This document shows positions 577 to 32,074 of a stretch of 33,227 nt of DNA, in pieces. Both the position numbers and the translations under genes were made by a program. The notes under the pieces were generated by a model. That model was not told the DNA's origin, ran no database searches, and worked only from the letters and a program-made list of their open reading frames with translations. Location: positions 1 through 33,227 of the forward strand of contig JYFJ02004295.1 of the NCBI GenBank assembly GCA_000934665.2. The letters are read 5' to 3'. Each line of letters begins with the position of its first letter. Position 1 is the first letter of the stretch. Origin of the DNA: Catajapyx aquilonaris (lineage: Eukaryota).

Positions 577-1473
577 GGCTGTACAGTCCGTTTAACGTAA
601 CTTATACAGCTTCTGATCATTTTAAAATCTGTAATGTGTACCAGTATGTAATCTACATCAGATAATTATGTCATCACTTTCCATGAAACCAATCTATTGC
701 AATCAAGTGCAGCAGAAGTCCAATCGATGGCAGTGAATAATGACTGTAACTCTTTACTGGTGTTATTTATGGTCTGTCCAGGCCAAGATATCAATGGTTG
801 TCTGGCCATGTCCAAGGGCACTTATTGAAAGAGTAAGTTTGCGTCGAAATAATTAATACGTATAGCACACAACATTTAGTCACTGGCATTTTGTTAATTT
901 TAAGATCGTTTGCAAATGTTTCCGATACGGTAGTTATGTCATTGTTTTGTTTCATTGCAATTTTCACCATGTAAACTTCGCTAGCCTTCTGTTTCTGGGA
1001 TCCATACCACGAATGGTAAGTGTTGAAGCGATCATGTAACTAGTGCTTTTGTTTGCACACATACTGGTCATTCTATACATCTGATGGGATTCGACTTTGT
1101 AACTTTACAAAATAACAGCCTACTGTTCTTCATCCACATATACTTGATATGCGTGAAACTGGCCCTGTGTAGTACTTTTTATTACCTCATCTGAAGTAGC
1201 CAGTCATTCAACCGGCCATTGAAGGGAGGGTTGCCAGTCCCTTCTCTTCATCATTTCTTGTCAAAGTGTCACGAGGGCATACAAGCAGCGGAGCAAAATT
1301 GAAACTCTTTTGCTGGAAATTGACTTCAGCCGCTTTGCTCTGCAATGAACGCAGTAAGGCTGTTAATGAAGAGAGCTTTCTCGATACATCCATCTAAAAC
1401 GTCCACAATTTAATGGGTTTTATTGGACCTTGAAGTCATCCTGCTGATGTATGACTGGTTAACAGTCCATTAA

Positions 1474-1630
1474 CTCACCTTCACATGACCCAAAACACTT
1501 ACTCCTATAGAGACACATGGCATTATTCACAGCCATCGACTCTCATTACGATTCTTCTGTCACTGTTTTCTGATGTTATGTATATGGGTTCCCAGGGCAA
1601 TATGTCAATGGTTGTTTGGCCATGTTCACT
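1474..1630 (-). promoter_or_regulatory. Degenerate inverted copy of the shared ~200-bp module
   Basis: gacacatggcattattcacagccatcgactctc...gatgttatgtatatggg matches the reverse complement of the module at 8575-8781. Shorter inverted fragments lie at ~757-812 and ~18613-18672. Confidence 0.55.
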
Positions 1631-2348: not shown

Positions 2349-3734
2349 ATGATTCCCAGGCGTTCTACTGTGGTTCAAGTGGAAGAAGCAAAATCTGAAG
2401 GGAAAACAGAAGAGGAAGACACGTTTTGGACAGCGTTCAGACCATTGGCAATCTTGGCCACCTTTGGAGGAATCGCTCTTTGTCTTTGGCCCAGGAAAGA
2501 TGCAAATTGGAAGTGGCATCACAGGTGGCCCGCAATGGCCCACTTCATTCTGCTGGCTGCATATGCCGCAAAAGTGACTTGGAAGCCATTCCCGTTTTGG
2601 GACAGGAGCAATCACACGAGCACAACAAGTTGGGTGACAAGCCTGACTCTTTTCTCAGCAGCTGTTGGTGCCCCATGGCTTCACTTCATGTTCTGCCAAA
2701 CAAGAGTCACTCAAATTTCTAAATGAACTCACCGTTTTTCGGCACTGAACTTGTGTCGCCACAAGAGTAAACTTTGTACATATTCCGCACTTCTAGTGTC
2801 TGCTTGCTTCTTGCTGCCGTTAGCTGAACAAACATACCAGATCTTAGCCAATCTTCAGAGTGGACAACTGTTTCAATTTTACAACATGTTTGACATGATC
2901 ATTGTGTGGCACTCTCTCTTTCTGCTTCTCTTGATCCCCGTGCAAGTGACTTTTTTGGCTACAGTCATTCGATTGAAGCTAGATGATTTCAACGAGGAAG
3001 TAATCCATGTCTGCACTGCTGGGCATAGTAATGGCCCTTGTGATGACGAATTGATCAAGAAATTGAAGTCTGCCAGCGACCTTTTCTACGACCTTTGCCT
3101 GATAGTGGACGACATGGGCAGCACTTACGGGGCATCCATCGTGGCCACCTATCTCATATATGTCGTGTGGATCACAGGCCATGTGTTTCACTTGATTGTT
3201 GTTACCTACCCAAGTCTAAGCACCCCAATCGTTTTAATATTCGTCACTGCAGTGCTCGTGTCATCAGTCATTACCTTCACTATCATCTTGGGATCTACAC
3301 CTCAGCAGGTATTGTATCTTCTACTGAATGGGCATTAATGTGATGGTAATTACTCTTTTCATGTTTCCAGAGCACAAGGGCATTGCCTCATCTAATCCAC
3401 TCTTGTCCTCTGGCCACCAATCCAAGCATCAAGGCGCACGTGAGTTACTGTTCACTCTTCCCTCATTCAATCTGCATTTGCTGAAGTGTACAACCGTGTG
3501 TTTCAGATGGAAGTTCTGGTTCAGAAGCTGACCGGTCCTCCCATCGAGATATCCGCAGCCAATTACTTTTTTGTCAACCGGGGCCTATTGACAGCCGTAA
3601 GTCTACAGAGCTGATTGACACTCAGGTCTGGCTAGTTACTTTCTATGTGTCATTCACAGTTAGCTGGAGCAGTGACCACATATGTAATAGTCCTGGCGCA
3701 GTTCAAGGGAGCTGAAGCAACAGATCACACCTAA
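2349..3734 (+). pseudogene. Gustatory receptor, type B (B1), single nonsense codon. Exons 2349-3308, 3371-3439, 3507-3596, 3660-3734
   Basis: Collinear with B3, but TGA at 2724-2726 replaces TTA (Leu) of B2/B3. Splice sites and the TYVIVLAQF motif are intact. Confidence 0.88.
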
Positions 3735-3969
3735 TGACATGTACAGTACTGTACACTAGTGGCGGTGAGGTGGTAAACGCATGTGGCTAACAAGTTTCCC
3801 CCCTAAGTGGGTTATTGTTGAGGGGAGTAGAGAGAGGAATATGCATGTTGTGCGAGATGGGCTAATTTTTTGGAAGCTTAGACATGCGGCATTAAAATTT
3901 TCGTGCACGAATATTACATTACAATGGTGTGTATCAACTCACTGTTTCAATTGGTGACTTATTGTATGA

Positions 3970-4325
3970 ACAATGCCCAAGCTGCCATCGGAATTGTGGC
4001 CTGGACAGCATAATACTGAAAAGCCCAAAGAGTTAGGGTGCGTTTACATGTGAGGCATATGATCGCGTGATGTCATGGCCGAGCGATGAATCCAATTGTT
4101 TGGGGCGAAAATAGATTGTTACCGTGATCGTTACTTTTGCCCCAAACAATTCGTTTCATTGCTCGGCGATGATATCGCTCACATGTAAAGGCACCTTGAC
4201 AGTCACGAGAAGCGTCTATGGCGGTGATCAATGCCATTGTGACGAGAGTGTTTTGTCAGGGTGGAGACTATTCAGGACATATTCAGGGAGCGGCCTCTCT
4301 TCACCAATAAATCTATAACCAGGAT
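3970..4325 (+). promoter_or_regulatory. Shared module copy (orphan), interrupted by a MITE
   Basis: atggcggtgatcaatgccattgtg, ggtggagac...ctcttcaccaataaatc. Confidence 0.6.
4036..4196. mobile_element. MITE, PIF/Harbinger (Tourist)-like
   Basis: TIR gggtgcgtttacatgtgag / ctcacatgtaaaggcacct, with inner arms also complementary. Flanked by TTA and TGA. The paralogous site near 12136-12155 (cccaaagagtgacagtcac) is empty. Confidence 0.8.
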
Positions 4326-5461
4326 ATATATTTTTATGATCTTCCTACGCCTTTACGGTATAGTACATCCAAACTGATTCAATGGTGAAAAATGTCGGGG
4401 ATTAGTTTTATATTCTGAGCAGAGAAGGTTGAACACGACTTGCTGAATCGTCTTGTAGATGCCAACTGTTGTATATATATATCGTCACTGTCCTTGAATA
4501 TTGTAAGAAGCAATGTATTAAAATGCCTCAAAAACATGACTCATCCGTTTAATATTATTTATTGGGTTCATTTTTGATACATTGATTGAAGCAAAAGAAG
4601 CAAAATATTCGTCTTCCGCATACAGGGAGAAGAAACCACAGCAGATATCTTGTCACCACAATGATGGTGCGTACATTGTACCAACTGATGGGAAGTAGCT
4701 CAACATTCATCCGAATGAAGGCGGACTTTATCTCACCACTTGGCAATGTATTCATGAATGGCTACATTTCTACATCATCTTCCCAAAAACAATCCCGAGA
4801 GTAGTGAGTAAAACAGTGCACATGTGCCAATGTGTTTAGCATCGTGTGAGCGATGTTGGGTCTCGGTATAAACAATATAGTATTTAACAGTAATCGGTTT
4901 GGTCGTCGCCACCAGATATGTGTATCATTAATCTATAATGGGCTTGCTTGCAGTGTCATTAAACTACCATTGGGTGCAACCTTGATTTTGGTTGATGATT
5001 ATAATAATTAGAATGTGATGATTAAGAATGATTGCGAACCATTTGATGGTGATTGTGTTCCAGGCTGGTGACCAGTGTAGAAGAATATTGAAATATGATG
5101 CAAGATAGTGCAGGCGGTGCAACAGTCATTCCGCTCCCTTGAACTGCGCCAGGACTATGACGTATGTGGTCACTGCTGCAGCCAACTGTGAAGGAGACGT
5201 GAAGAGTGATTAGTTACACTTCCATCTAATACATATTTCAAGACCTATATCTGTCTGTCTTTCTTTTGTCACCTAAACAGATCCATACGGAGGCCTCCAC
5301 ATATGCCCCAGGGGTATCACCAGGGGTAGTTTTTTACCGGGAAGGTTCTTAGCGCATTGGAATTGACCTCCGAGGTCATCCTTGGTCACAGGAGGCGAAA
5401 ATCACTTTGGATGTTGGCCCCCTGTGTTCTAATAATGCTGTTTAGTTGCCCGGGAAACCAT

Positions 5462-5555
5462 ATTCCTTCCCTCCTCTCTCTCTCTCCCTCTCTCTCTCTC
5501 TCTCCCTCCCCTTCCCTCCTCCTCCTCCCCCCCACCTGCCACCTCCTCCTCCAGC
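5462..5555. repeat. (CT)n / (CCT)n polypyrimidine microsatellite inside the Helitron
   Basis: ctctctctctctccctctctctctctctccc...cctcctcctcctccccc. Confidence 0.9.
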
Positions 5556-6484
5556 CCCTCAGTGTCATTACATCTCTACGTGGTGGCTGTACTTTGGTCA
5601 GTGTTCTTGCACTCACATTGGTTGCATACTTTATTGTTCCAATTTAGAATTTATTATTACACACTGTTGCCTTGGTTACGAGACTACTGGTGTAATTGGG
5701 TGATGATCACGTTTTGTTCATAATATTCAAAGAGTTCCATATCTTGCTATGCTGGTATCTTATTCCATGTTTATCCTAGGCACGGTCCAGCTACGGCCTC
5801 GGGGCAGGCCCAGGGTTCGAGCTGGTGGTATACAAATGCGCTGCATGTCAGAGTAGCGGTTTTGGGTTGTTTCTTCAGGCAGCCTGTCGGGATTTTCTTG
5901 GCGTACTTTTCCTGCCATATCTTTCCCCTCTACGTACTGTGTCATGTGCTTTTTGTCGGAATTCTCCTGTTCCGAACTGTGTTAACTGTTAAGTTGTGTG
6001 ACATGTAGTTTTCAATCGTTTTGCTTTTATTTGTTTTTTTCCCCTTTGTAAAATTTGGACCTCCACATTCTCAATGTATATGCAAAAGTCGTTATGGGAT
6101 GTGGTTTAACGTGTTTAAGGTGTGGTATAAAGGTATAAGGTGTGGCATAATGTGGTCTACGTAGGTTTGTGTCATGCAGTTTTCAATCTTTTTTGCATTT
6201 GTTTGTTTTTTCACTTTCTAACGTTTGGACCTCCTCCACATTCTCAACACCCCACCGACATCACAGCATTGGCAGAAGCACATTGGATACACACAGAGTT
6301 CGGCTAAGGGTGAGGGACCAAGAGACTGAGGAAGAACACCAAGCATGTCTCCACTCTATGAGAAACAGCGGCCATCAGTCGGAGATTAGCTCCATTTTCA
6401 TCAACCCACCTCCTACATGCCGCTTTCCACTACTCAGCAGACATTGACAATAATTCTTCTGCCGGTGTTGTTGCAATTGGATCT

Positions 6485-7130
6485 ATGTCAGAGGTATGCC
6501 ACCATTGTCAGGCAAAGAAGTGGAAGAGGGAAACAAACCCGATCTGTTGCTCCATTGGAAAGGTTAGCCTTCCTCTACTGGCTGAGCCTCCACAGCTAGG
6601 CTACTTAAAATGCTCCTCTTATAGGCACATCACCCGATTCAAAACATTTCCTGAAGACCATCAGAAATTACAATTCGGCCTTCCAGATTACATCTTTTGG
6701 GGCCAACGTTGTTAGAGAAGGGGGCTTCATGCCTACATTCAAAGTGCAAGGGCAAATTTATCATCGCATGGGATCACTCCTTCCTTCAGAAAACCAGAGT
6801 CCGCGGTCTCTGCAGCTTTACTTCGTGGGGAACATGCAACAGCAGGCGGAATACCGTTGCACCTACTTAAACGGCACATGCCTCGACATCATACTGCAAC
6901 TTCAGGAGATGATCCCTTCCACACATGTCAAGAGCTTCAAACTAGCACTTGAGAGTCCTCCTCCTCTGGAATTTGACTTGGTCATCGATGCAGACAAGCG
7001 ACTACAAGGTGATCATCGTGGTCGATTCAATCAACCTTCTTGCAATGAGATTGCTGTCATCATGAGTGGTCAGGAGCATGGTAATAAGAGGGATATTGTG
7101 TTGAAGCTTCGAGACAACACGCTTCATCTA
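6485..7130 (+). pseudogene. Helitron Rep/helicase N-terminal fragment, frameshifted
   Basis: CxxCxAxKWxxExxxxCCxxGKVxLP, YNSAFQITSFG, FKVQGQIYHRMGSLLP, LQLYF, NEIAVIM and RDIVL are typical Helitron RepHel N-terminal motifs. No HUH or Pif1 motifs remain. Confidence 0.85.
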
Positions 7131-8574
7131 TGCAATTATGAACGTAATTGGCCATACCAATTATTGCATGTGCATCAAGTCCAGAAAAAACACAATGGAT
7201 GTCAGATTGTAAGCTCTGCCATGCTGGAGCTTCTACATTCTACATTTACTTCTACATTTATTGCACAACCTTCAATTTTTCATGACATACTTTTGCTGGA
7301 TTTTGGAGGTGTATTGTGTATTTTCTTACAATCCGACATCCTTAGTGTGTTGTTTGGACTTCATGCACATGCAATATGCTCCATGTCACTGGTATGCCAA
7401 CATTGTATAGCCATAATTATTGCAAATCAATGAGTCACTCCTATGGAAAAGTATTTCATAACCCGAGCAACGCCGGGTATCCTGCTAGTAATATATTATA
7501 GCAAATGAGCTCTGTAGACTTACTGCTGTCAATAGGCCCCGGTTGACAGGAAAGTATTGTCTGCGGATATCTCGATGGGAGGACCGGTCAGCTTTTGTAT
7601 GAATACTTCCATCTGAAACATACAGGTGGCCATGATGGATGCTCCGTAAGTGCTGCCCATGTCATCCACAATCAGGCAAAGGTCGTACAACAGGTCGCTG
7701 GCAGACATTAGCTACTCGACCAGCTTGTTACCAGTGGGTCCATTTCGTTGTGTACTGCAGACATGTATTACTTCCTCATTGAAATCTTCCAGCTTCAATG
7801 CGATGACTGTGGCCAAAAAAGTCACTTGCACAGGGATCAAGTGAAGCAGAAAGAGAGAGTGCCACACAATGAATGTGTCAAACATGTTGTAAGATTGAAA
7901 CAGTTGTCCGCGTCGAAGATAGGCAAAGATCATATATGAGAGGTCAGCTAACGGCAACAGAAAGCAAGCTGACACTAGAAGTGCGGAATATTTTCGCAGT
8001 TTCCTCTCGTGGCGACGGATGTTTAGTGTAGAAAAACGTGGATTAGTTTCGAAATTTGAGTAACTCTTGTTTGGCAGAAAATGAAGTGAAGCCATGAACC
8101 ACCCTCTGCTATTCCATCAAGAGTTAATGTTGTGACCCAACTTTTTGTGCTCGTGTGACTGCTCCTGTACCAATACGGGTATGGCATCCATGTCACTTTT
8201 GTGACATATGCAACCAAAAGAGTGAAGTGCACCATTGCAGGCCACCGTTGATACCACTTCCAATTTGCATCTTTCCTGGGCCAAGGACAAGGAGCGATTC
8301 CTCCAAATATGACCAAGATGGACAGTGGTTTGAATGTGGTCCAAACGCGTCTCTCTTGCCCAATGGCCATCACTTTCTTCTGGTTCCTTCTTCTCTTCCA
8401 CATGAAACACTGCTGATGTTCGATGTAATGTGAGGAAGGCACAATTTGATCTGTTATTTTTTCTGAAACAAGTGGACAATACTCTGAACCTCGCTGGACC
8501 TCCACCAGGGCAGCCACGTGTACAATCACCACCGAACACGACCTAAACAGCCTTGGCCTTTGCTGGCGACTCGT

Positions 8575-8781
8575 CTGAGCATGCCCAAACTGTCTTAGAA
8601 ATTGTGCCCTTGAGAGCCCATTAATATAACATCCGAGAAGCGAAAGGGTGACACTGAAAAGAAGAGTCGATGGCGGTGATCAATGCCATTGTGTCCAGAA
8701 GGGAGTGTTGGGTCAGGGTGGAGACAGGTCAGGTCAAGGTCAGGGAGCGGCCTCTCCACCAATAAATCCATAACCAGGCTC
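8575..8781 (+). promoter_or_regulatory. Shared ~200-bp module (reference copy), upstream of C1
   Basis: cgatggc-ggtgatcaat-gccattg; ggtggaga...aggtcaggtcaaggtca...tctccacc; aataaa. Function is inferred from position. Confidence 0.6.
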
Positions 8782-9700
8782 TAGGGTACATCCAAACCTA
8801 TTCATTATTGTGGACAATGGTGCTCGTAAAGCTGCGTAGAAAACCACATAAGCGCAGACAGTGTAACCTGCCAGTTTCACCATTGCAGCGGAGTGACACG
8901 GACTGCTAAGAGGAAAGGTTCCAAATCACGGTTTAAGTTCATTGCATAAGGTGCAGTTATTATTACTGTCCAAAGAAAGTGTGTAACCCTTTATCCAGTA
9001 GTTCTTCGAATTATTCCTCAAGTTTATTAACAGTCTGGTCACGGCGAGAGGAAGTTGGCAGTCAAAATAACATAGCATTTTCAGCACTCTGATCGCCAGC
9101 GGTCTCCTCCCCGTTTCCAGTCTGAGAACGTATCCAGCAGTATTTCACGGAAGTGAAAGATATGTTTTTATGTAATATGTTTGTACCATCTCCAATCCCG
9201 CGCAATGAGACAATCCCCAAATGTGAGCATTATGTAAGGAAATAGGCACCATCTTAGATTCAAATATTCTGAAGGCAGTATTTAAATTTCTCGATTTAGC
9301 AGCAACTAAAGATTTTTTGAACCTGATTTTAGTAAATCGTTAGGGATGATTTCGAACAATTTGAAGCACCATACAGTAACATGAAAAAATAGTCACAATA
9401 ATTGCCTTGAGTTGTGCGCAGGCCTGCCACAGGCCGTGTGAGGAAGTGAGGAAGTTGACGTAATTTTAATTTTTGGTGAGTGTGACTGTCAATGTTCCAG
9501 CCATTTACATCCAGGCGAGTGGTTGCGGCTAATTATAAAATAATATTGAAATATGAAGTGGTGGTTTACGGGCGTTAAGAATATGGATTTCCCAATGATG
9601 TATGCTAGTGCAATCTTATTTGCTTCAGTGAAAAAAGGAAGTAATTAGACATACTAATTAAGCCCTTTTTTCTTGTTCTGAAGCCTCGACTTCTGAAGCA

Positions 9701-11063
9701 ATGGTTCCCAGGCGTTCTACTGCTATTCAAGTGGAAGAAGCAAAATCTGAAGGGAAAACAGAAGAGGAAGANCCACTGTCCATCTTGGCCACCTTTGGAG
9801 GAATCGCTCCTTGTCCTTGGCCCAGGAAAGATGCAAATTGGAAGTGGCATCACAGGTGGCCTGCAATGGCCCACTTCATTCTGCTGGCTGCATATGCCGC
9901 AAAAGTGACTTGGATGCCATTCCCGTTTTGGTACAGGAGCAGTTACACGAGCACAACAAGTTGGCTGACAAGCATGACTATTTTCTCAGCATCTGTTGGT
10001 GCTCCATGGCTTCACTTCATGTTCTGCCAAACAAGAGCTACTCAAATTTCGAAATTAAATCACCGTTTTTCGGAACTGAACATGCGTCGCCACAAGAGTA
10101 AACTTCGTACATATTCCGCACTTCTAGTGTCTGCTTGCTTCTTGCTGCCGTTAGCTGAACAAACATACCAGATCTTTGCATATCTTCAGAGTGGACAACT
10201 GTTTCAATTTGACAACATGTTTGACATGATCATTGTGTGGCACTCTCTTTTTCTGCTTAACTTGATCCCACTGCAAGTGACTTTTTTGGCTACAGTCATT
10301 CGATTGAAGCTAGATGATTTCAATGAGGAAGTAATACATGTCTGCACTGCTGGGAATAGTAACGGCCCCTGTGATGACGAATTGATCAAATTGAAGTCTG
10401 CCAGCGACCTGTTGTACGACCTTTGCCTGATTGTGGATGACATGGGCAGCACTTACGGGGCATCCATCGTGGCCACCTATCTCATATATGTCGTGTGGAT
10501 CACAGGCCATGTGTTTCACTTGATTGTTGTTACCTACCCAAGTCTAAGCAACCCAATCGTTTTAATATTCGTCACTGCAGTGCTCGTGTCATCAGTCATT
10601 ACCTTCACTATCATCTTGGGATCTACACCTCAGCAGGTATTGCATCTTCTACTGAATGTCCATTAATGTGATGGTAGTATTACTCTTTTCACGTTTCCAG
10701 AGCACAAGGGCATTGCCTCATCTAATCCACTCTTGTCCTCTGGCCACCAATCCAAGCATCAAGGCGCACGTGAGTTACTGTTCACTCTTCCCTCATTCAA
10801 TCTGCATTTTCTGAAATGTGCAACCGTGTGTTTCAGATGGAAGTTCTGGTTCAGAAGCTGACCGGTCCTCCCATCGAGATATCCGCAGCCAATTACTTTT
10901 TTGTCAACAGGGGCCTATTGACAGCCGTAAGTCTACAGAGCTGATTGACACGCATGTCTAACTAGTTACTTTTTTGTCTCATTCACAGTTAGCTGGAGCA
11001 GTGACCACATACGTCATTGTTCTGGCGCAGTTCAAGGGAGCAGAAGCGACAGATCACACCTAA
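9701..11063 (+). CDS. Gustatory receptor, type B (B2). Exons 9701-10636, 10701-10769, 10837-10926, 10989-11063
   Basis: Open frame, canonical splice sites, TYVIVLAQF. The N at 9772 stands where B3 has 22 nt, probably an assembly gap. Confidence 0.85.
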
Positions 11064-11644
11064 TGACACTAACATTTATCATCAATTGCATTCATATTTG
11101 TGATGTTACTGTTATAGTAAATAGTAATAAAATGTAGGGAGAAGAATGGCCTTGATTCCAAATATAATTACACACAATAGCAGTATAAAATAACATAGAA
11201 ATTAATTTATTATGTACCCGTGGGCCCATTGTTTTAATAGCAACTCTTCCAGGACCCATTTTGCAGGGACGCATAATAAATTAAACGTAAATTGTTCTTG
11301 TAATAATATCAGATAGAAAAGTGAAACTCATTGTTTAAGTACTGGTGTGAAAATGGTGTGAATAAGGACAGATTTACGTTTTTGGCTAATATTTTTGCTA
11401 AAATTGTACCATTTCCTATTTTCTAAAGGTTGACAAATTCAATTTTCCTACACGACCGGTATTTAATTGCCTGCAAGTAAAATCCCCTCATGCAGGAATG
11501 TTACCGACTACAATAATTATTCAATTCATCAGTTTGGAATTAATTCTGAATTAATAATTCAAATCCAAATTGAATGTTGCCCATCACTGATATTGCTGCA
11601 ATTCAGTGAAACCCATCTGTAATAATAATCCATCTTAGAACCGA

Positions 11645-11790
11645 AGCAGGTTAGGGTGGAGTCCGACTGCTAATCGGGAGGTCCTGGGTTCGATTCCCAG
11701 GGCCGGCGATCTCCTCCCAGGATAATTCCGGGATCGTTTTCGTATAACAGGCCACAGCCGCTTCCTTCCCTATCCTTGGCCCTACCCACA
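11645..11790 (+). mobile_element. tRNA-derived SINE
   Basis: B-box ggttcgattcc and a degraded A-box. Body ggataattccgggat...aggccacagccgcttccttccc. Same position in the duplicated unit as the copy at 23975. Confidence 0.75.
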
Positions 11791-11900
11791 TACTGTATGA
11801 AGAAAAATTGAGTAGTAAAATGGTGGTATTCCATCCCCCTAATGGAGCGCTGATTCTTCCAACAGGGTAAATAAATTTATATCTGTGGGGGAGAGGTGTA

Positions 11901-11988
11901 CTATGGGCGCCAAAAGAATTGACCGGAGTTGATGGGTATATAGCGCCATATACCCATCAAATCCGGTCAATTCTTTTGGCGCCCATAG
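11901..11988. mobile_element. Palindromic MITE with TA flanks (Tc1/mariner-type)
   Basis: 45-bp arms (11897-11941 / 11948-11992) with one mismatch and a 6-nt loop. Confidence 0.75.
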
Positions 11989-12089
11989 TACAAGAAAGAG
12001 AGGAAATAGAGAGTGTTGTCAAAGAGTGCTCAGGGCGTGATTGCTTATCCTGTATCCGTGTCTCGATGGATAAAAGGTACAACTTCACA

Positions 12090-12275
12090 TGGAAGTTGTG
12101 GCCTGGACAGCCTATAGGCCTAAATAACATCCGAAAAGCCCAAAGAGTGACAGTCACAATCGATGGCGGTGATGAATGCCATTGTGTCCAGATGGGAGTG
12201 TTTGGTTAAGGTGGAGACTATGGTCAGGACAAAGTCAGGGAGCGGCCTCTCTCCACCAATAAATCCATTCCCAGG
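12090..12275 (+). promoter_or_regulatory. Shared module copy (orphan)
   Basis: cgatggcggtgatgaatgccattgtgtcc, ggtggaga...tctccaccaataaatcc. Confidence 0.6.
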
Positions 12276-13070
12276 TCATAATTTACGACCTTCCTACGCA
12301 TTTACGGTATAATACATTCAAACTGATTCAATTGTGAAAAATGTCGGCCATAAGTTTTATTTTCTGTGCAGAAAAGGTCGAATACGACTCGATGAATCAT
12401 CTTGTACATGCCCACTGTTGTGGTTAAGACTAGCACATCAAATATGACGTCATTGTCCTTGAATATTGTAAGAAGCCAATGTATTAAAATGTCTCAAAAA
12501 CATGACTCACCCATTTAATATTATTTATTGCGTCTATTTTTGATACATTGATTGAAGCAAAACAAGCAAAATATTCGTCTTCCGCATACAGGGAGAAGGA
12601 ACCACAGCAGATATTTTGTCCCCGCAACGATGGTGCATACATTGTACCAATTATTGGTGGGAAGTAGCTCAATATTCATCCGAATGAAGGTGGACTTTAT
12701 CTCGCCTGTTGGTAGTGTTCTCATGAATGGCTACATTTCTACATCATCTTCCCAAAAACAATCCCGAAAGTGAGTAAAAGTGCACAACATGTGCCAATGT
12801 CTTGGCAACGTGTGAGCGATGTTGGGTCTCGACATAAACAATATAGTATTTAACAGTAATCGGTTTGGTCGTCGACACCCGATCCGTGTATCATCAATCT
12901 AATAGACTTGATTGCAGCGTCATTAAACTACCTTTGGGTGCAAGCAACCTTGAATTTGGTACTAGATGATTATAATAATTTATCAGAATGTGATGATTAA
13001 GAATGATTGTGAATCATTTCATGCTGATTATGTTCCAAGCTGGTGGAATATGAATCAGGCGGTGCAACAG

Positions 13071-14481
13071 TCATTCTGCTCCCTTGAACTGCGCCAGGAC
13101 TACGACGTATGTGGTCACTGCTGCAGCCAACTGTGAAGGAGACATGGAGAGTGATTAGCTACACATCCATCATATAAAATGTCCTCTGTAGACTTACGGC
13201 TGTCAATAAGCCCCGGTTGACTGAAAAGTAATTGGCTGCGGAGATCTCGATGGGAGGACCGGTCAGCTTTAGTATGAAAACTTCCATCTGAAACATACAG
13301 TGGTACATTTAATTTCAGAAGTGAAGGTTTATAAATGTGTAGGTGCATCACTCACATGTGCCTTGATCCTTGGATTGGTGGCTAGAGGACAAGAGTGGAT
13401 GAGGTGAGGCAATGCCTTTGTGCTCTGGAAACATGAAAAGAGTCATTATTATCACACCAAATGTACACTCAATGTATGATGCTACCTGCTGAGGTATACG
13501 TCCCAAGATGGTGGTGAAGGTAACGACTGATGAGATGATTATCCCAAGAATCACTATTAATATTATTGGTTCAATTATACTTTGGTATTTATCATTGTCT
13601 GGAATCAAGTAAAACATATCGCCGGTAATCCACACGACAGATATGAGATAGGTGGCCATGATGGATGCACCGTAAGTGCTGCCCATGTCATCCACAATCA
13701 AGCAAAGGTCGTACAACAGGTAGCTGGCAGACTTCAATTTCTTGATCAATTCGTCATCACAGGGGCCATTACTATGCTCAGCAGTGCAGATGTGTATTAC
13801 TTCCTCATTGAAATCATCTAGCTTCAATCGGATCACTATAGCCAAAAAAGTCACTTGCACGGGGATCAAGTGAAGCATAAAGAGAGAGTGCCACACAATG
13901 ATTATGTCAAACATGTTGTAAGATTGAAACAGTTGTCCACGTCGAAGATACGAGTAGATCAGGTGTGAGACTTCAGCTAACGGCAGCAAGAGGCAAGCAG
14001 CCATCAGCAGTGCGGAATATTTTCGCAGTTTTCTCTCGTGGAGACGCATGTTTAGTGCAGAAACACGGTGTACTACTTTCGACATCTGAGCGACTCTGGT
14101 TTGGCAGAAAATGAAGTGAAGCCACGGAGCACACACTGCCACTGCATAGAGAATTACGCATGTTGCCCAACTTGTTGTGCTCGTGTGATAGCTCCTGTAC
14201 CAAAACGGGAATGGCATCCAAGTCACTTTTGTGACATATGCACCAAATAAAAGGAAGTGCACCAGTGATGACCACCGTTGGTACCACTTCCAATTTGCAT
14301 CTTTCCTGGGCCAAGGACAAGGAGCGATTCCTCCAAAGGTGGCCAAGATTGCCAACGGTCTGAACGATGACCAAAACGCGTCTCTCTGGCCATCACTTTC
14401 TTCTGGTTTCTTCTTGTCTTCCACATGAATCACTGGTGATGTTCGACGTAACGTGAGGAAGTCGCTATTTGATCTGTTCAT
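13071..14481 (-). CDS. Gustatory receptor, type C (C2), ~404 aa. Exons 14481-13486, 13424-13356, 13287-13198, 13130-13071
   Basis: Intact frame, GT-AG phase-0 introns, TYVVVLAQF. The start was chosen at the ATG shared with C3; the frame stays open further upstream in this copy. Confidence 0.88.
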
Positions 14482-14559
14482 TTTTCTGCAACAAGTGGAA
14501 AAGACTCTGAACCACGCTGAACCTTCACCAGGGCAGCCAAACAGTCTTGTCCTGTGCTG

Positions 14560-14761
14560 GCGACTCGTCTGATGGTGTCCAAACTGTCTTAGAGAGCCCA
14601 TGAATATAACATCCCAGAAGACGAAGGGTGACACTGAAAAGGATAGTCGATGGCGGTGATGAATTCCATTGTGTCCAGAAGGGAATGTTTGGTTAGGGTG
14701 GAGACAGGTCAGGTCAAGGTCAGGGAGCGGCCTTTCCACCTATAAAGGCACAACCAGGCTG
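14560..14761 (+). promoter_or_regulatory. Shared module between head-to-head C2 and A2
   Basis: TCAAGGTCA at 14714-14722 and TATAAA at 14741-14746. The two ATGs are about 500 bp apart. Confidence 0.65.
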
Positions 14762-14978
14762 TAATAAATTAATGACTTTCCTATACTCCTTTACAGCACA
14801 GTCCATGCAAACTTATTCAATTGTAAAAAATGGAGGCCATAAATTTTATGTTCTGCCCAGACAGTGTTACGTGGCAGTTTCACAATTGCAGTGCAGTGGA
14901 GTGACACGGATTGCTAAGAGGAAAGGTGACAAATCACTGAGACATTCCCTAATTGGCACTTGGAATGGACAAGAAATT

Positions 14979-16343
14979 ATGCTCAGGGTAACGTCCAATA
15001 GGGCGATTTCAATGAAGGAAATGAAGAGTCCAAAAGACTTTGCAAGTAAGGAAAATGCATTTTGGGAAGTGTTCAGACCAGTGGCCATCTTGTCAGTGGT
15101 CGGAGGGATAGCTCCTTGTCCATGGCCCAAGAAAATGGAGGATCTGAGAGGAAAGTGGTACAGACGGTGGCCAACAATGGCGCACATCCTTCTACTCGCC
15201 ACTTACATCACCGTCTTCGGCTGTTATCCGCCGAAGGATATGATCAGTGCCAACCAAGAGCAAAGCCAGACTAAAACATTGACTATAGTCTCATTGTGCA
15301 AGTCCTACTTAGTATTGCCTCGTGCCTGAACTTCATCTGGGTTCAAAAGGGTCTCACCAATATTTGGGAACTAATCAACTGATTGTCAAATCAAGATGTG
15401 AGCAGGCACAAGAGGTCACTTCGAAAATGGTCATTGTTGCTGGCAGTAGCGACAGTCTCACTTCCTTTACTGGAAACGTCCAGATTAATTACTGCTCTAG
15501 CTCTTGAAGGGGGGTTTCTTCAGCCATATTACTTGTTCTTTTTGTTCTATGAGTGGCACTGTCTATTCCTGCTCAGTCTATTCCCATTCAGTTGGTATTC
15601 CTGGTACAATAGTTATTCAGCTGACATCTATTACGAGCTAAGTGCCTTAGTGACCATGATTAACAGCACTTACGGCATGCACATCATGTTAGTTTTCCTG
15701 GCATGTGTCGTCTGGATCACAAGCTTATTATTTTATTTTATCTTGATTTCTGAGCCACTAATTCTGATATCTATGAGATTGATTCTCATTTTCACCGTGG
15801 TCGTTTTTGTGGTGGGTCTCACTATTGTTTTGGGATCAATTCAAACGCAGGTACCTGGACTCTCATTTTTCTTTTTGTTAATTAGTTTGTGACAATCTTG
15901 ATATTGCTTAATATTTGGTCATTTTCAGAGCACCAGTACCCTCGACGACCTCATGAACACACATCGTCGGGTTGTCAATCCGAGTATAAAGGCAGACGTA
16001 AGTGTGAAATAGTGTTCGGTGCAGTTCACTTTTCATCCTGTAATAATGAAGAAATTATTTGTACTTTCGCGTCATTATTCAGATCAATTCGCTGATCCAG
16101 AAGATGACTGGTACTCCCATGGGAATAACTGCGGCCAATTATTTCACTGTTAATCGAAGCCTGTTGACGTCGGTAAGTTGTGCTGCTAATTACTTAATCA
16201 ACATTAATACACTGATATTTATTCCCCATCCAGATCGCCGGATCTGTAACCACGTACCTCATAGTTCTGGCTCAGTTCAAGGGTGCTGAGGAAGTGGAGG
16301 ATTTTTCCACGGCATGTCCACCAACATTACGAGAACACAGTGA
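14979..16343 (+). pseudogene. Gustatory receptor, type A (A2) pseudogene. Exons 14979-15850, 15929-15997, 16083-16172, 16234-~16343
   Basis: 2-nt insertion near 15285, 1-nt deletion near 15575, ~110-bp deletion near 15607 relative to A4, and a tail frameshift. TYLIVLAQF is retained. Confidence 0.88.
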
Positions 16344-16504
16344 GGCTGCACATCAGACCGACAATAAGTTATGCAGCTGCTTATTATTTTAAAAGCCGTG
16401 ACAACATGTTATATAAAATACTCCGAACATCCCTGAACCTTTCACCAGAACAGCCAAGTGTACCATTACTCCCGACCATGACCTATAAACAGGCTTGTCA
16501 TTTG

Positions 16505-16735
16505 CTGGCAACTCTTCTGAGCATGCCCAAACTGCTTTAAAAATTGTGCCCTGGACAGCCCATGAATATAACATCCGAGAAGCCAAAGGGTGACACTGAA
16601 AAGGAGAGTCGATGGCGGTGATCAATGTCATTGTGTACTGAAAGGAGTGTTTGGCCTAGGTGGAGACATGTCATGTCAACATAAGGATTAAGGAGGCGGG
16701 CTCTCCACCAATAAATTCACAACCATGCAGGCTAT
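16505..16735 (+). promoter_or_regulatory. Shared module upstream of A3, preceded by a C-type 5' leader relic (~16415-16505)
   Basis: gagtcgatggcggtgatcaatgtcattgtg, ggtggaga...tctccaccaataaa. Confidence 0.6.
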
Positions 16736-16950
16736 AATAATTGTGTCAACTTCCTCTTGGGTACATCCAAACCTATTCATTATTGTGGACAATGGTGCTC
16801 ATAAATCTGCGTAGAAAAAAACATAAGCGCAGACAGTGTTACCTGCCAGTTTCGCCATTGCAGTGCAGTGGAGCGACACGGACTGCTAAGAGGCAAGGCG
16901 CCAAATCACTGAGACATTCACCAATTGGCACTTGGATTGGACAAGAAATT

Positions 16951-18438: not shown

Positions 18439-19180
18439 GGCTGTACAGTCCGTTTAACGTAACCTAGGCAGATGCTGATCATTTTAAAATCTGTAAGGTT
18501 TACCAGTATGTAATCTACATCAGATAATTATGTCATCACTTTCCATGAAACCAATCTATTGCAATCAAGTGCAGCAGAAGTCCAATCGATGGCAGTGAAT
18601 AATGTAACTCTTTACTGGTGTTATTTATGGGCTGTCCAGGCCAAGATATCAATGGTTGTTTGGCCATGTCCAAGGGCACTTATTGAAAGAGTAAGTTTGC
18701 GTCGAAATAATTAATACGTATAGCACACAACATTAAGTCACTGGCATTTCGTTAATTTTAAGATCGTTTGCAAATGTTTCCGATACGGTAGTTATGTCAT
18801 TGTTTTGTTTCATTGCAATTTTCACCATGTAAACTTCGCTAGCCTTCTGTTTCTGGGATCAATACCACGAATGGTAAGTGTTGAAGCGATCATGTAACTA
18901 GTGCTTTTGTTTGCACACATACTGGTCATTCTATACATCTGATGGGATTCGACTTTGTAACTTTACAAAATAACAGCCTACTGTTCTTCATCCACATATA
19001 CTTGATATGCGTGAAACTGGCCCTGTGTAGTACTTTTTATTACCTCATCTGAAGTAGCCAGTCATTCAACCGGCCATTGAAGGGAGAGTTGCCAGTCCCT
19101 TCTCTTCATCATTTCTTGTCAAAGTGTCACGAGGGCATACAAGCAGCGGAGCAAAATTGAAATTCTTTTGCTGGAAATTG
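17868..19180 (+). repeat. Recent segmental duplicate of 1-1321
   Basis: Near-identical through introns and ~750 bp of 3' flank. Similarity ends after ttttgctggaaattg. Confidence 0.9.
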
Positions 19181-19199
19181 CGAGAAAATTGCGAGGAAA

Positions 19200-19351
19200 A
19201 CATGCGAGAAGGCAAAGGATGACACTGAAAAGAAGAGTCGATGGCGGTGATCAATGCCATTGTGTCCAGAAGGGAGTGTTGGGTCAGGGTGGAGACAGGT
19301 CAGGTCAAGGTCAGGGAGCGGCCTCTCCACCAATAAATCCATAACCAGGCT
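19200..19351 (+). promoter_or_regulatory. Shared module copy followed by a truncated A-type leader (to ~19504)
   Basis: Near-identical to 8635-8781; TCAAGGTCA at 19305-19313. Confidence 0.6.
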
Positions 19352-20273
19352 CTAGGGTACATCCAAACCTATTCATTATTGTGGACCAATGGTGCTCGTA
19401 AAGCTGCGTAGAAAACCACATAAGCGCAGACAGTGTAACCTGCCAGTTTCACCATTGCAGTGGAGTGACACGGACTGCTAAGAGGCAAGGTTCCAAATCA
19501 CGGTTTAAGTTCATTGCATAAGGTGCAGTTATTATTACTGTCCAGAGAAAATGTGTAACCCTTTATCCAGTAGTTCTTCGAATTATTCCTCAAGTTTATT
19601 AACGGTCTGGTCACGGCGAGAGGAAGCTGGCAGTCAAAATAACATAGCATTTTCAGCACTCTGATCGCCAGCGGTCTCCTCCCCGTTTCCAGTCTGAGAA
19701 CGTATCCAGCAGTATTTCACGGAAGTGAAAGATATGTTTTTATGTAATATGTTTGTACCATCTCCAATCCCTCGCAATGAGACAATCCCCAAATGTGAGC
19801 ATTATGCAAGGAAATAGGCACTATCTTAGCTTCAAATAATCTAAAGGCAGTATTTAAATTTCTCGATTTAGCAGCAACTAAAGATTTTTTGAACCTGATT
19901 TTAGTAAATCGTTAGGGATGATTTCGAACAATTTGAAGCACCATACAGTAACATGAAAAAATAGTCACAATAATTGCCTTGAGTTGTGCGCAGGCCTGCC
20001 ACAGGCCGTGTGAGGAAGTGAGGAAGTTGACGTAATTTTAATTTTTGGTGAGTGTGACTGTCAATGTTCCAGCCATTTACATCCAGGCGAGTGGTTGCGG
20101 CTAATTATAAAATAATATTGAAATATGAAGTGGTGGTTTACGGGCGTTAAGAATATGGATTTCCCAATGATGTATGCTAGTGCAATCTTATTTGCTTCAG
20201 TGAAAAAAGGAAGTAATTAGACATACTGATTAAGCCCTTTTTTTTTTGTTCTGAAGCCTCGACTTCTGAAGCA

Positions 20274-23974: not shown

Positions 23975-24142
23975 GAAGCAGGTTCGTGTGGTGGTTAAGG
24001 AGTCCGACTGCAAATCGGGAAGTCCTGGGTTCGATTCCCAGGGCCGGCAACCCTGACCGTGGTTTTCTGTGGTTTTCCACGGTCTTCCAAGGATAATTCC
24101 GGGATTGCTTCCATATAATAGGCAACAGCCGCCTCCTTCCGT
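23975..24142 (+). mobile_element. tRNA-derived SINE
   Basis: A-box-like tggtggttaagg, anticodon-arm-like ccga-ctgcaaa-tcgg, B-box ggttcgattcc, then a non-tRNA body ggttttctgtggttttcc...ccgcctccttcc. Confidence 0.8.
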
Positions 24143-24250
24143 CTATGGCGGTGATCAATGCCATTGTGAAGAGAGTGTTTTGTTTGGGTGGAGACAGGTC
24201 ATGACAAATTCAGGGAGCGGCTTCTCCACCAATAAATCCATGTAGGCAGG
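24143..24250 (+). promoter_or_regulatory. Shared module copy (orphan, 5'-truncated)
   Basis: atggcggtgatcaatgccattgtg, ggtggaga...tctccaccaataaatcc. Confidence 0.55.
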
Positions 24251-24934
24251 TTATATTTTATGACCTTCCTACGCCTTTACGGTATAGTTCATCCAAACTG
24301 ATTCAATTGTGAAAAATGTCGGCCATAATTTTATCTTCTGTGCAGAGAAGGTTGAAGACGACTTGCTGAATCATTTTGCACATGCCCACTGTTGATTAAG
24401 ACTAGCACATCAAATATGTCGCCTTTGTCCTTGAATATTGTAAGAAGCCAATGTATTAAAATGTCTCAAAAACATGACTCAACCATCTATAATATTAAAA
24501 TGCTTGCGTTGGGGGGCCGAGCCCTCTAATTGGTCCGCCGCCGCGCATTGTTGCCCCCACCTCCCCATTGGCCCGCGTTCATTGTTCCCTGGAAGCATTG
24601 TTACCACGACGCCTCCAATTGGCCCCCCTTCCGAGCATGCGCAATGGGTGGAAGAACGCCACAGTCGCTTGCTGGACGTCAGCGAGGACGCATCATTCTC
24701 CTCTCCCGTGAAGACTCCTCCACCCTCTTCCACCTTCCCCCACCAGCCACATCTTCACGGTGACCTCACAACAAGGGGAGGGGGAGAGGAGGGGGGAATG
24801 GAACGTGCCGTAAACAAACCGAATCGAATGTTGGCTAAGGTCGGAATCAGTTGTTTATCAATGGTGCCGATATAAACTCCACGGACGTTTATGAACAAAG
24901 TAAAATAATTCCGGTTTTTCAAACGAGGTCCTTA

Positions 24935-25170: not shown

Positions 25171-25334
25171 TACTGGCATCCCCCAGTGGGAAGAGTTGCA
25201 GGATTAGCCGCGATATTCAACACTGAACCCGGGGATAGGACGAGAACGTCAAAGGAAAGTGTCGGGAAGAATTAAACCAGTTTTTGATCGTGTAATATTA
25301 TTTTTTAATTGTAGTTATTTTTATTTATTAAAAT

Positions 25335-27798: not shown

Positions 27799-27919
27799 TT
27801 TTCTGCAACAAGTGGACAATACTCTGAACCTCTTTGAACCTTCACCAGGGCAGCCAAGTGTACCATCACCACCGAACACGACCCTTGACACGACCTAAAC
27901 AGTCTTGGCCTTTGCTCGC

Positions 27920-28133
27920 GACTCGTCCGAAGATGTCCAAACTGTCTTAGAAATTGTGCCCCGGAGAGCCCATTAATATAACATCCGAGAAGCCAAAGGG
28001 TGACTCTGAAAAGAAGAGTCGATGGCGGTGATCAGTGCCATTGTGTCCAGAAGGGAATGTTTGGTCAGGGTGGAGACTGGTCAGGTCAAGGTCAGGGAGC
28101 GGCCTCTCCACCAATAAATCCATAACCAGGCTA
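27920..28133 (+). promoter_or_regulatory. Shared module upstream of C3
   Basis: Full copy; TCAAGGTCA at 28086-28094. Confidence 0.6.
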
Positions 28134-28149
28134 TAATATGTCAACATTC

Positions 28150-28897
28150 TGTTTTACGTCTCCTTCTCAGGCAGCTGGAGCAGTGAACACATGTTTATGG
28201 CGTATACCTTACAAACACGTTCTCGGCATTTGTCATTTTGGTGACAAGCAGGCCTCATGCACCATTTTGTTGTCTCTCACTTGTGTCCGGATAATCTACT
28301 TCCAAATCCCACGGAATCCCATGTAGTGTTTCCCCCTCTGGAATGACCCAATATGATACGAACTCATGTGAGGTGGCCATCGCGCCTCGGTTAGCGTAGT
28401 TGACTCATGCGTTGAATTTACGGCAGTAGGACTTGTAATGAAAAGAGACGAGGCGCGAGGCATGCATACCATGGGTGGCATGAAATCGATGCAGATGCAT
28501 TGATGTAGTTTAATAATAAGCTTGTAGATATAGTGTTGAACGAGGGCATATCCATGAGAACTTGAACAATGGGATATTGTTAAGTGGGTTATTGTTGAGG
28601 GGGGTAGAGAGAGGAATTATTATGCATGTTGGGCAAGTTGGCTCAGTTTTTGGAAGCTAAAACATGCGGCATTAAAATTTTCGTGCATGCAAATTATGTG
28701 ACTATGATGGTGTGTACCAACACAAAGTTTCAATTGGCGACTTGTCTGAACATCTGTCATGGAAATTGTGGCCTGGACAGTGTCATTAAACCACCATTGG
28801 GTGCAAGCAACCTTGATTTTGGTAGATGATTATAATAATTAGAATGTGATGATTGATTAAGAAAGACTGCGAACCATTTGATGGTGATTATGTCCCA
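28150..28897. pseudogene. Collapsed repeat-unit relic: + strand GR exon-4 fragment, copy of the post-B1 spacer, C-type 3' flank
   Basis: acgtctccttctcag|gcagctggagcagtgaacacat (~28156-28192). 28581-28780 resembles 3804-4008; 28781-28897 resembles 4953-5060. Confidence 0.65.
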
Positions 28898-29084
28898 GTG
28901 GCCTTGAAGATAAAGGGCGAGGAAAGGGTGATCTGATCTAATTATGGTGAATGACCATCGTGTAATTCAATGCGTGCCCTTTGTGACAAGAACCTATCTG
29001 ACGAACCTATACAGTGACGTTACGAAAAAAAGGAAATGAGTGACTAAACAATGCAAATGAATTAATAAGAGGATGTGATATACG

Positions 29085-29280
29085 ACTCGTCTGAATATGC
29101 ACAAACTGTCATCGAAATTGTGGCCAGGATAGCCTATAAATAACATCTGAAAAGCCAAACGGGAGTCGATGACGGTGATCATTGCCATTGTGTTCAGAAG
29201 CAGTGATTAATTAGGGTGGAGGCACGTCAGGTCAAAGACAGGTCCGAGCGGGTTCTCCGCCTATAAATCCCAGGCTATAA
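29085..29280 (+). promoter_or_regulatory. Shared module upstream of A4 (diverged)
   Basis: gagtcgatgacggtgatcattgccattgtg; ggtggagg...tctccgcc; TATAAA at 29262-29267. Confidence 0.6.
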
Positions 29281-29491
29281 TAAAATAATGACCTTCCTAT
29301 ACGCCTTTATGGCGCACAGTACATGCAAACTTATTCAATTGTAAAAAATGGTGGCCATAAATTTTATCTTCTGCCCAGACAGGGTTACGTGGCAGTTTCA
29401 CCATTGCAGTGGAGTGACACGGACTGCTAAGAGGCAAGGTGCCAAATCACGGTGACATTCACTAGTTGTAACTCGGATTGGACAAGAAATT

Positions 29492-31026: not shown

Positions 31027-31637
31027 AATGGGCAACCTTGATCTATAATAGATATAATTTAGTTCTGTGATGAATATTATTGCGAACCATTTGTGAAGGT
31101 TGTTATGTTCCAGACTCTTGACCAGGGTAACAGTACTTGATCAATCTGCAAGAGTGAAGTATGTGCAACAGTTATTCTGCACCTTCCTTTCAGACTGTGT
31201 CTGCTTTTGATCAGGCAGCTCTGAAATGCGCCATTGTTTCCCATAATGAATTCTTTTCGTTCTGTAGTGTTAAGCGAGCCATATTGTCCCAATAAATGTA
31301 GTCTTTTCATTATGGCGAATGAATGGCCCCCAAATAAATAATGGTGGATTCCACAAATGCCGTATTTCTGTCCGTGTTTCATGCCTTTCTCATGCTATAA
31401 ACTTATAGAGTGTATGGGGCCTGTAATTTGTCACACATGTCATTAATATTGACTCGAAGAGTAACCTCACACACGCCCACATGAATCTCTGGTGATGTTC
31501 GACGTAACGTGAGGAAGTCGCAATGTGATCTCTTCATTTTTCTGCAGCAAGTGGACAATATCTGAACCTATTTGAACCTCCACCAGGGCAGCCAAGTGTA
31601 CCATCACCACCGAACACGACCTAAACAGCCTTTGCTG
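31027..31637 (-). pseudogene. GR type C relic: leader and first ~20 codons (ATG at 31537) plus degenerate stop and 3' flank (~31027-31185); body lost
   Basis: 31478-31637 resembles 27738-27915; gtgcaacagttattctgc resembles the C-type stop region. Confidence 0.7.
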
Positions 31638-31857
31638 GCGACTCGTCTGAACGTGTCCAAACTGTCTTAAAAATTGTTCCCCGGAGAGCCCATAAATATA
31701 ACATCCGAGAAGGCAAATGGGTGACATTGAAAAGAAAAATCGATGGACGATGGCCGTGGTCAATGCCATTGTGTGCTGAAGGGAGTGTTTGGTTAAGGTG
31801 GAGACATGTCAAAGTCAGGGAGCGGCCTATCCACCAATAAATCCACAACCAGGCTAT
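31638..31857 (+). promoter_or_regulatory. Shared module between the C relic and A5
   Basis: gatggccgtggtcaatgccattgtg, ggtggaga...tatccaccaataaatcc. Confidence 0.6.
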
Positions 31858-32074
31858 AATATGTCAACTTCCTGTTGTCTCTAGGGTACATCCAAACCAT
31901 TCATTATTGTGGACAATGGTGCTCATAAATCTGTGTAGAAAAACACATAAGCGCAGACAGTGTAACCTGCCAGTTTCACCATTGCAGTGCAGTGGAGCGA
32001 CACGGACTGCTAAGAGGAAAGGTGCCAAATCACTGAGACATTCACTAGCTGCCACTTGGATTGGACAAGAAATT

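Follow-up and report, generated by a model that had tools for sequence, protein, structure and literature searches.

A repeated spacer sequence in a gustatory-receptor gene array of Catajapyx aquilonaris and its probable duplication with the adjoining genes

The sequence that recurs eleven times in this stretch of Catajapyx aquilonaris DNA is most readily understood as the 5' flank of A- and C-type receptor genes, probably promoter plus leader, passively duplicated together with them. The window, that is the whole 33,227-nucleotide stretch that was analysed, is an array of gustatory-receptor genes (Pfam 7tm_7) that have three exons and fall into three types, A and B on the plus strand and the B-like type C on the minus strand. 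The repeated sequence, referred to here as the module and represented by the index copy at 8575-8781, is the centre of a head-to-head spacer of approximately 540-580 bp that extends from the start of a C gene to the start of an A gene. It is an ordinary by-product of the growth of the array, and nothing indicates an array-wide control function maintained by selection.

The receptor array and the position of the module

Matches to 7tm_7 were found by Pfam for three A-type open reading frames (16741-18000, E 5.2e-15; 31841-33124, E 2.7e-13; 29456-30514, E 1.1e-10) and two B-type frames (9662-10666, E 6.4e-06; 2727-3338, E 5e-05). None of the other B or C frames had a Pfam match at E≤0.01, including the minus-strand frames 13348-14739 and 26791-27894, which were relatives of the B genes by tblastn (64-75% identity). 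The loci were placed by tblastn with the A16 and C14 proteins and the splice sites were read from the sequence, giving three-exon models of these two genes that translated cleanly (Table 1). Their last exons contain the C-terminal TYhhhhhQF motif. The N-terminus MNRS was common to the A and C proteins, while B2, B9 and B20 started at an ATG of their own, with the sequence MVPRRST or MIPRRST. The 240-260 bp directly upstream of B9 were common only to B2, B20 and B9, and the proximal upstream sequence of the B genes had no match to the module profile at E≤10 (nhmmer, filters off). The single N of the window, at 9772, lies in exon 1 of B9, so that the intactness of this gene cannot be fully judged. 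A stretch of about 510 bp (8930-9441), which separates the upstream region specific to B genes from the A-leader relic, had as its sole match in the window its own recent duplicate, 19502-20013 (98.2%).

Table 1. Coordinates of module copies, receptor genes and duplicated blocks in the window
Feature	Position	Strand	Remarks
Oldest copy, inverted	1401..1628	-	nhmmer E 2.7e-18; 62-69% identity to the other copies in the common core; C-side end toward B2 (ATG 2349), 720 bp away
Orphan copy, split	3955..4429 (nhmmer 3963-4028 and 4196-4426)	+	E 7e-07 and 8e-39; a hairpin (MITE-like) insertion of 167 bp interrupts it at 4029-4195; no adjoining gene start
Index copy	8575..8781 (whole spacer copy 8460-8929/8930)	+	nhmmer E 2e-171; left, pseudogene C8 with ATA at the start codon position; right, A-type leader relic without an A exon, then the B9 ATG 920 bp further
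Orphan copy	12048..12377 (nhmmer 12047-12375)	+	E 7.7e-60; followed by about 0.7 kb of spacer and the 3' end of convergent C14
Full spacer copy between C14(-) and A14(+)	14483..14938	+	E 2.2e-138; sole copy flanked by gene bodies on both sides (C14 intact-looking, A14 pseudogene)
Copy 5' of intact-looking A16 (ATG 16993)	16416..16910 (nhmmer 16415-16911)	+	E 2.9e-156; C side a stub only, abutting the A14 3' flank
Left-truncated copy	19197..19501 (nhmmer 19197-19502)	+	E 6.8e-109; 97.6% duplicate of 8628-8930; B20 ATG (20274) 0.92 kb further
Orphan copy, left-truncated	24141..24352	+	E 4.3e-43; directly after the tRNA-Cys-like repeat
Copy 5' of intact-looking C27(-) (ATG 27798)	27800..28159	+	E 5.3e-123; A side ends at profile position 348, no A gene following
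Copy 5' of intact-looking A29 (ATG 29534)	29083..29450/29451	+	E 3.1e-102; without a C side
Full copy 5' of A31 (ATG 32117)	31539..32034/32035	+	E 3.3e-162; left, 20-codon C relic (31537-31478)
Short inverted fragment, profile 117-181	18610..18672	-	A16 3' flank; duplicate at 752-814(-)
Short fragment, left part of module	28734..28788 (nhmmer 28734-28781)	+	within relic 28160-28898
A-type tail	1-573	+	tblastn
A14	ATG 15021	+	pseudogene: frameshift, stops and a gap of about 113 bp (tblastn)
A16 model	exons 16993-17931, 18176-18265, 18328-18438	+	379 aa; 7tm_7; last exon TYLIVLAQF
A29	ATG 29534	+	intact-looking
A31	ATG 32117	+	intact-looking start; exon 1 only in view
B2	ATG 2349	+	in-frame stop 2724-2726
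B9	9701..11045	+	own ATG, MVPRRST...
B20	ATG 20274	+	B-type
C8	start 8455	-	start position ATA; frameshifts; about 2.3 kb inserted in intron 2
C14 model	exons 14481-13486, 13287-13198, 13130-13071	-	381 aa; last exon TYVVVLAQF
C27	ATG 27798	-	intact-looking
Relics	C, 20 codons, 31537-31478; exon relics 1823-1999		tblastn
Duplicated block	7624-8783 = 13650-14763 = 26970-28135		self-alignment; 81.8% and 90.4%, respectively
Duplicated block	8628-11375 = 19199-21980		self-alignment; 94.9%
Duplicated block	14421-15605 = 31477-32700		self-alignment; 81.1%
Duplicated block	16434-18013 = 31573-33137		self-alignment; 88.4%
Duplicated block	16511-18451 = 29085-30978		self-alignment; 83.0%
Duplicated block	4197-5226 = 12148-13171		self-alignment; 82.9%
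Duplicated block	12519-14766 = 25794-28138		self-alignment; 82.4%

The receptors of the window have almost no relatives in the protein sets that were searched. Two matches to the A16 open reading frame (419 aa) were obtained among 1.84 billion representative proteins, and one of them, a repetitive protein of 1998 aa, was rejected as spurious. The sole credible relative was an unnamed, receptor-like fragment of 141 aa that matched residues 95-211 of the frame (E 2.9e-07); no homologue was found at E≤0.001 among proteins of 230-734 residues. In A-type exon 1 (16993-17931 and its paralogs), third codon positions were 84.7-88.8% identical and first and second positions 87.5-92.8% identical, while in the C-type genes the values were 82-88% for third positions and 85-91% for the whole exon. 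Since third positions were about as diverged as the first and second, weak constraint or diversifying selection on the young A and C paralogs is suggested.

The eleven copies listed in an earlier sequence-only reading were all recovered at the expected places within the window by both BLASTN and nhmmer. The BLASTN query, 8401-9000, gave 12 further matches in the window. The nhmmer profile was built from seven copies and run with filters off, so the scores of these seven are partly by construction, although BLASTN located the same places independently. The E values of the eleven copies ranged from 2e-171 to 2.7e-18, with the copy near 3970 detected as two pieces, and the spans given by nhmmer and hmmalign differed by a few bases. 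Three short fragments were found by nhmmer in addition to the earlier list (752-814(-), 18610-18672(-) and 28734-28781), the last of which lay inside a decayed relic consisting of the 3' end of a B gene, an orphan copy and spacer (28160-28898).

The distances to the gene starts were also as previously described. The module-equivalent ended 227-237 bp before the ATG in all four copies of A exon 1 (15021, 16993, 29534, 32117), and the module began 88-129 bp from the start of all three minus-strand C genes (8455, 14481, 27798); the distances of the earlier reading fit if its letter C denotes these genes. The same 88-129 bp separated the module from the start of the 20-codon C relic (31537). The three B-type ATGs (2349, 9701, 20274) were preceded by the module at approximately 0.72-0.92 kb; the copy before B2 was the inverted one, with only 62-69% identity to the others.

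In the fullest copies (8460-8929, 14483-14938, 31539-32034), homology extended from the C start to a point about 60-80 bp short of the A start. The ATGs of C14 and A14 (14481 and 15021) were 539 bp apart on opposite strands, a head-to-head pair with starts less than 1 kb apart, although A14 is a pseudogene, and relics of this arrangement were present at 8460 and 31539. The copies started at profile positions 1 (four copies), 17, 96, 108, 113, 117, 167 and 207, and their ends were at 348, 377, 423, 423, 426 or 492-493. Roughly profile positions 207-335, corresponding to 8666-8781 of the window, were common to all eleven. The segment 8575-8781 is thus approximately the intersection of differently truncated copies and has no borders of its own as a unit; it appears to be a unit of 200 bp because truncations from either side leave this stretch in every copy. 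At the outer edges, where full copies end a few bases from the C start codon, the description as non-coding does not hold cleanly.

An intact-looking gene start adjoined five of the eleven copies (those of C14, A16, C27, A29 and A31), and no copy had intact genes on both sides. Two copies (8460 and 19197) retained the A leader without the A exon, 0.92 kb before B9 and B20. The remaining four (1401(-), 3955, 12048 and 24141) lacked an adjoining intact start, and three of these (3963, 12047, 24141 in the nhmmer spans), the orphan copies, had no gene start whatever beside them. The module had been said to persist where the neighbouring gene was deleted. The copies are indeed present at these places, but their persistence is not evidence of control because each is the surviving gene's own 5' flank.

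Duplication of genes with their flanks

Alignment of the window with itself showed that ten of the eleven copies lay within longer self-alignments that reached into the adjoining gene or spacer (Table 1). The exception was the inverted copy, 1401-1628, in which homology continued only about 30 bp past the module. Since ten copies are parts of longer homologous blocks, the reiteration of the module is explained by passive segmental duplication of genes together with their 5' flanks, the module being the central part of the ancestral C(-)/A(+) spacer.

The array is composed of at least three rounds of a higher-order unit of about 10.6 kb, a length given by the 10,571 bp that separate 8628 from 19199. 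The order within the unit was B(+), an orphan copy without an A gene, a spacer of about 1 kb, C(-), the full spacer with the module and one or two A(+) genes. The tree and the identity matrix of the copies followed the flanking blocks, with five of the eight inner branches weakly supported. The three orphan copies grouped together (81/81), with 29083 as sister (83/85). In the core, copies 8460, 19197 and 27800 were 96-100% identical, while copy 1401(-), at 62-69% identity, had a long branch.

Unequal crossing-over, one inversion and later partial deletions multiplied the genes along with their 5' flanks. Each intact A or C gene would then be driven by its own inherited copy of the proximal promoter, and the remaining copies would be decaying relics. 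The identity of 1401-1628 to the other copies was of the same order as that between B and C proteins (64-68%). Because of this similarity, and because its C-side end faces B2, the inverted copy may be a remnant of the spacer of the B/C ancestor, left after the inversion of one copy.

The module is of value mainly for annotation, since it flags A- and C-type receptor genes at their 5' ends and identifies relic gene starts. It also reveals how the array grew, first by rounds of the 10.6-kb unit and then by local duplications, an inversion and deletions, and its copies constitute a set of candidate promoters of graded divergence for later expression work.

Constraint, promoter motifs and other readings of the module

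The sequence-only reading had proposed that the divergence of the module be compared with that of neutral flanks, and the outcome argued against a selected control unit, the module being equal to its surroundings in the C pair and more diverged among the A paralogs. For the pairs formed by A14, A16 and A29, with 16517-16733 as the module-equivalent of A16, the module differed at 36/192, 38/169 and 43/183 aligned sites (18.8-23.5%), whereas introns 1 and 2 differed at 30/283, 36/292 and 27/282 sites (9.6-12.3%). The module was therefore about twice as diverged (Fisher p 0.015, 0.0055 and 5.9e-05), a contrast that could be inflated by gene conversion of the gene bodies, which would make the introns look younger. 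A31, whose intron is cut off by the end of the window, was excluded from this comparison. Among the same three genes, identity at the third codon positions of exon 1 was 86.9-88.4%. Between C14 and C27, 22/208 sites of the module (10.6%) differed versus 103/793 sites of the introns plus 3' spacer (13.0%), so the module was slightly but not significantly better kept (p 0.41). Among the three orphan copies, identity was 79.7-87.0% in the module part versus 85.0-90.4% in the adjoining spacer.

A conserved footprint was sought in ten copies, from which 19197 had been dropped as a near-duplicate along with the small fragments, and none was found; the best windows of 12, 20 and 27 columns were matched by 510, 2110 and 393 of 5000 column shuffles, respectively. 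The terminal branches of the gene-linked copies (16415, 0.099; 14483, 0.11; 29083, 0.13) were as long as those of the orphans (0.055-0.13). Purifying selection on the module was not detectable, in comparisons that have low power for weak constraint at 10-25% divergence.

From its position and from AT-rich motifs recognized post hoc, the spacer probably had a promoter role, and we infer that it contains a pair of proximal promoters that face outward, together with 5' leaders. The labels CCAAT, TATA and initiator given to its boxes are presumptive. On the A side, a CCAAT/TATA-like box was present at 8760-8767; its pattern, [AT]ATAAA[TG], occurred in 10 of the 11 copies and had the form TATAAA in copies 14483 and 29083. 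This box was followed in 9 of 11 copies by a conserved, CA-rich, initiator-like site resembling CATCCAAAC. On the C side, TATATT was found on the minus strand at 8623-8628, and 7 of 11 copies contained the corresponding plus-strand pattern, A[TA]ATAACAT. A 20-bp near-palindrome, ATGGCGGTGATCAATGCCAT (8670-8689), lay between these boxes, and a degenerate pattern of it occurred in all copies including the oldest, inverted one. All of these patterns were written after the alignment of the same copies had been viewed, and the counts are descriptive only. A fixed spacing of TATA box and initiator was not found, as the distance ranged from 28 to 63 bp among the copies, and a nuclear-receptor-like TCAAGGTCA was discarded as a conserved feature, being confined to four closely related copies (8460, 14483, 19197, 27800). 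Considering the head-to-head position of the spacer, an outward-facing promoter pair is a reasonable reading of its former state.

It had been proposed that the module is a bidirectional promoter or control element, reused as a selected unit throughout the array, with sense read-through and antisense transcription aiding the choice of receptor. The copies do lie 5' of A and C starts in a head-to-head spacer, between divergent starts, with the outward TATA-like boxes at both ends and the near-palindrome, itself a post-hoc pattern, in 11/11 copies. Moreover, a copy without an A gene was kept in all three higher-order units, and each of these orphans (3963, 12047, 24141) faces the 3' end of a C gene convergent with it. 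The precedent that had been cited is real, as the promoters of ant odorant receptors are reported, in a preprint, to be bidirectional with antisense lncRNAs (PMC12393541). Nevertheless, several observations make a selected, array-wide unit unlikely, 1) the module was not conserved in excess of introns and spacers, with about twofold more divergence among the A paralogs, 2) no footprint exceeded the shuffles, 3) intact genes flanked none of the 11 copies on both sides, 4) proximal upstream sequence of another kind precedes the B genes, which make up 3 of the 13 counted receptor loci, 5) one orphan copy was split by an insertion and others were truncated and 6) gene-linked branches were no shorter than orphan ones.

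A related possibility concerns the orphan copies themselves (3955-4429, 12048-12377, 24141-24352), which could be retained promoters that fire rightward through the spacer of about 1 kb into the convergent C 3' end, the antisense transcript silencing the C gene when other receptors of the unit are chosen. We regard this as quite improbable; if true, the firing of the orphans would be the gustatory-receptor counterpart of the transcriptional interference among ant odorant receptors, and the module would matter more only if these copies proved to be transcriptionally active. The spacer that follows the orphans was rejected as coding sequence, as it contained no long open reading frames, no Pfam match at E≤1 and, by tblastn with the A and C proteins, only chance-level matches at E≤10.

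Open frames were observed upstream of the MNRS starts of A16, A31 and A14 (16741-16992, 31841-32116 and 14697-15020, respectively), with an in-frame ATG at about 16789 in A16. The lengths of these frames (84, 92 and 108 codons, respectively), together with the 81-95% identity of the A paralogs from the right end of the module to the ATG, could mean that the module is for the most part a leader that is transcribed, whether as an untranslated 5' exon or to encode additional N-terminal residues of the A type, and is not promoter DNA. However, the corresponding frame was open for only 26 codons in A29 and was broken by stops in the 8460 relic, indels of 2, 5 and 7 bases occurred inside the module, and the A and C proteins both begin at MNRS. 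The open frames of A16 and A31 are not independent, given their recent shared ancestry (94.9% leader identity). The open frames are probably the result of chance and shared ancestry, and a leader as the main identity of the module is very unlikely. Likewise, the module as a small open reading frame starting at the ATG at 8670 was eliminated, its frame being broken among the copies by indels of 2, 5 and 7 bases.

There is still less to recommend a mobile or mobilised repeat, such as a short element that is not autonomous or a piece of promoter picked up by a rolling-circle element, that would occur genome-wide and would have entered the array by insertion; the window does contain other repeats (the hairpin at 4029-4195, the tRNA-Cys-like segment at 23978-24049 and the possibly Helitron-like frame at 6609-7433), several copies begin near profile positions 96-117 and the small fragments occur in both orientations, but the copies have neither terminal inverted repeats nor a common pair of ends, no RNA-polymerase-III-type or structured RNA signal was present and 10 of 11 copies have homologous flanks past the module, so that the shared left ends reflect one or two ancestral events and not independent insertions. 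No terminal inverted repeats flanked the module in the four regions scanned, no Rfam match reached the gathering score and the folding energy of the module was no better than that of shuffles (z 0.11 for the plus strand and 1.38 for the minus strand). ARAGORN found no tRNA-like signal in the module, its only call in the window being elsewhere.

Known systems and other repeats in the window

Passive duplication of the 5' flanks, the preferred reading, can be set beside several known arrangements. Head-to-head gene pairs that share a promoter region of less than 1 kb are a known class. C14 and A14, with starts 539 bp apart on opposite strands and TATA-like boxes facing outward, resemble its members, but gene bodies flank only one of the 11 copies on both sides, and of that pair one gene is a pseudogene. 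The variable-exon promoters of protocadherins carry, before each exon, a short element with strong conservation both among paralogs and between species. The likeness is a promoter-proximal sequence that recurs in front of every member of a tandem array whose expression has to be selective; the module differs in that it contains no block conserved beyond shuffles, and the genes here are complete with 3' exons of their own.

The closest description of the process by which the module would have been duplicated is the account of promoter copying in honeybee odorant receptors, in which unequal crossover is described as duplicating promoter regions, entire or in part, with the genes (PMC12001030). 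In both cases the position of the crossover decides whether a tandem receptor gene has a complete promoter copy, an incomplete one or none, and recent duplicates have similar promoter sequences. In contrast to the honeybee genes described there, the receptors here are of the gustatory type (7tm_7), and in the duplicated unit one gene is inverted, with the result that a single head-to-head spacer serves two genes.

In ants, the preprint describes odorant-receptor arrays in which bidirectional promoters give rise to antisense lncRNAs, in addition to read-through transcription (PMC12393541). In both systems chemoreceptor genes stand in tandem and a sequence recurs at their 5' ends, with some copies oriented such that a transcript would run antisense through a neighbouring receptor. 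The evidence in ants is transcriptional, consisting of twin capped-RNA peaks and RNA-FISH, and the ant arrays are mostly head-to-tail, whereas the array described here has mixed orientations and a module in which no sequence constraint was detected. A literature search that joined "gustatory receptor" and "bidirectional promoter" found no paper, and a broader search, judged by titles and abstracts, found no work on gustatory-receptor promoter modules.

Several other repeats and insertions were observed in the window. The 167-bp insert at 4029-4195, present as a single copy in the window, has inverted arms (4032-4066/4166-4200 and 4069-4113/4132-4176) that are 83-84% complementary, and looks like a small hairpin (MITE-like) element. 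A palindrome of 96 bp, 95.8% self-complementary, is located just left of the orphan copy at 12048 (11897-11992). The tRNA-Cys(GCA)-like call of ARAGORN (23978-24049) falls within a repeat, 23710-24140, that abuts the orphan copy at 24141 and matches 11372-11769 at 81.7%; the latter segment gave no tRNA call, and 23978-24049 may be a tRNA-derived short interspersed repeat.

The insertion of about 2.3 kb noted in Table 1 (5227-7480) lies in intron 2 of pseudogene C8 and includes low-complexity frames rich in Ser, Leu and Pro (5330-5720) and, on the plus strand, an open reading frame of 274 aa (6609-7433). The latter had no Pfam match at E≤1 and may resemble the N-terminal part of Helitron replicase/helicase proteins. 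In the third higher-order unit, an insertion of about 1.3 kb (24498-25793), the open reading frames of which had no Pfam match, has no counterpart in the homologous spacers at 4557 and 12523. The long spacer that follows B20 contains two adjacent direct repeats of about 320 bp (22735-23054 and 23066-23383) with 83.8% identity.
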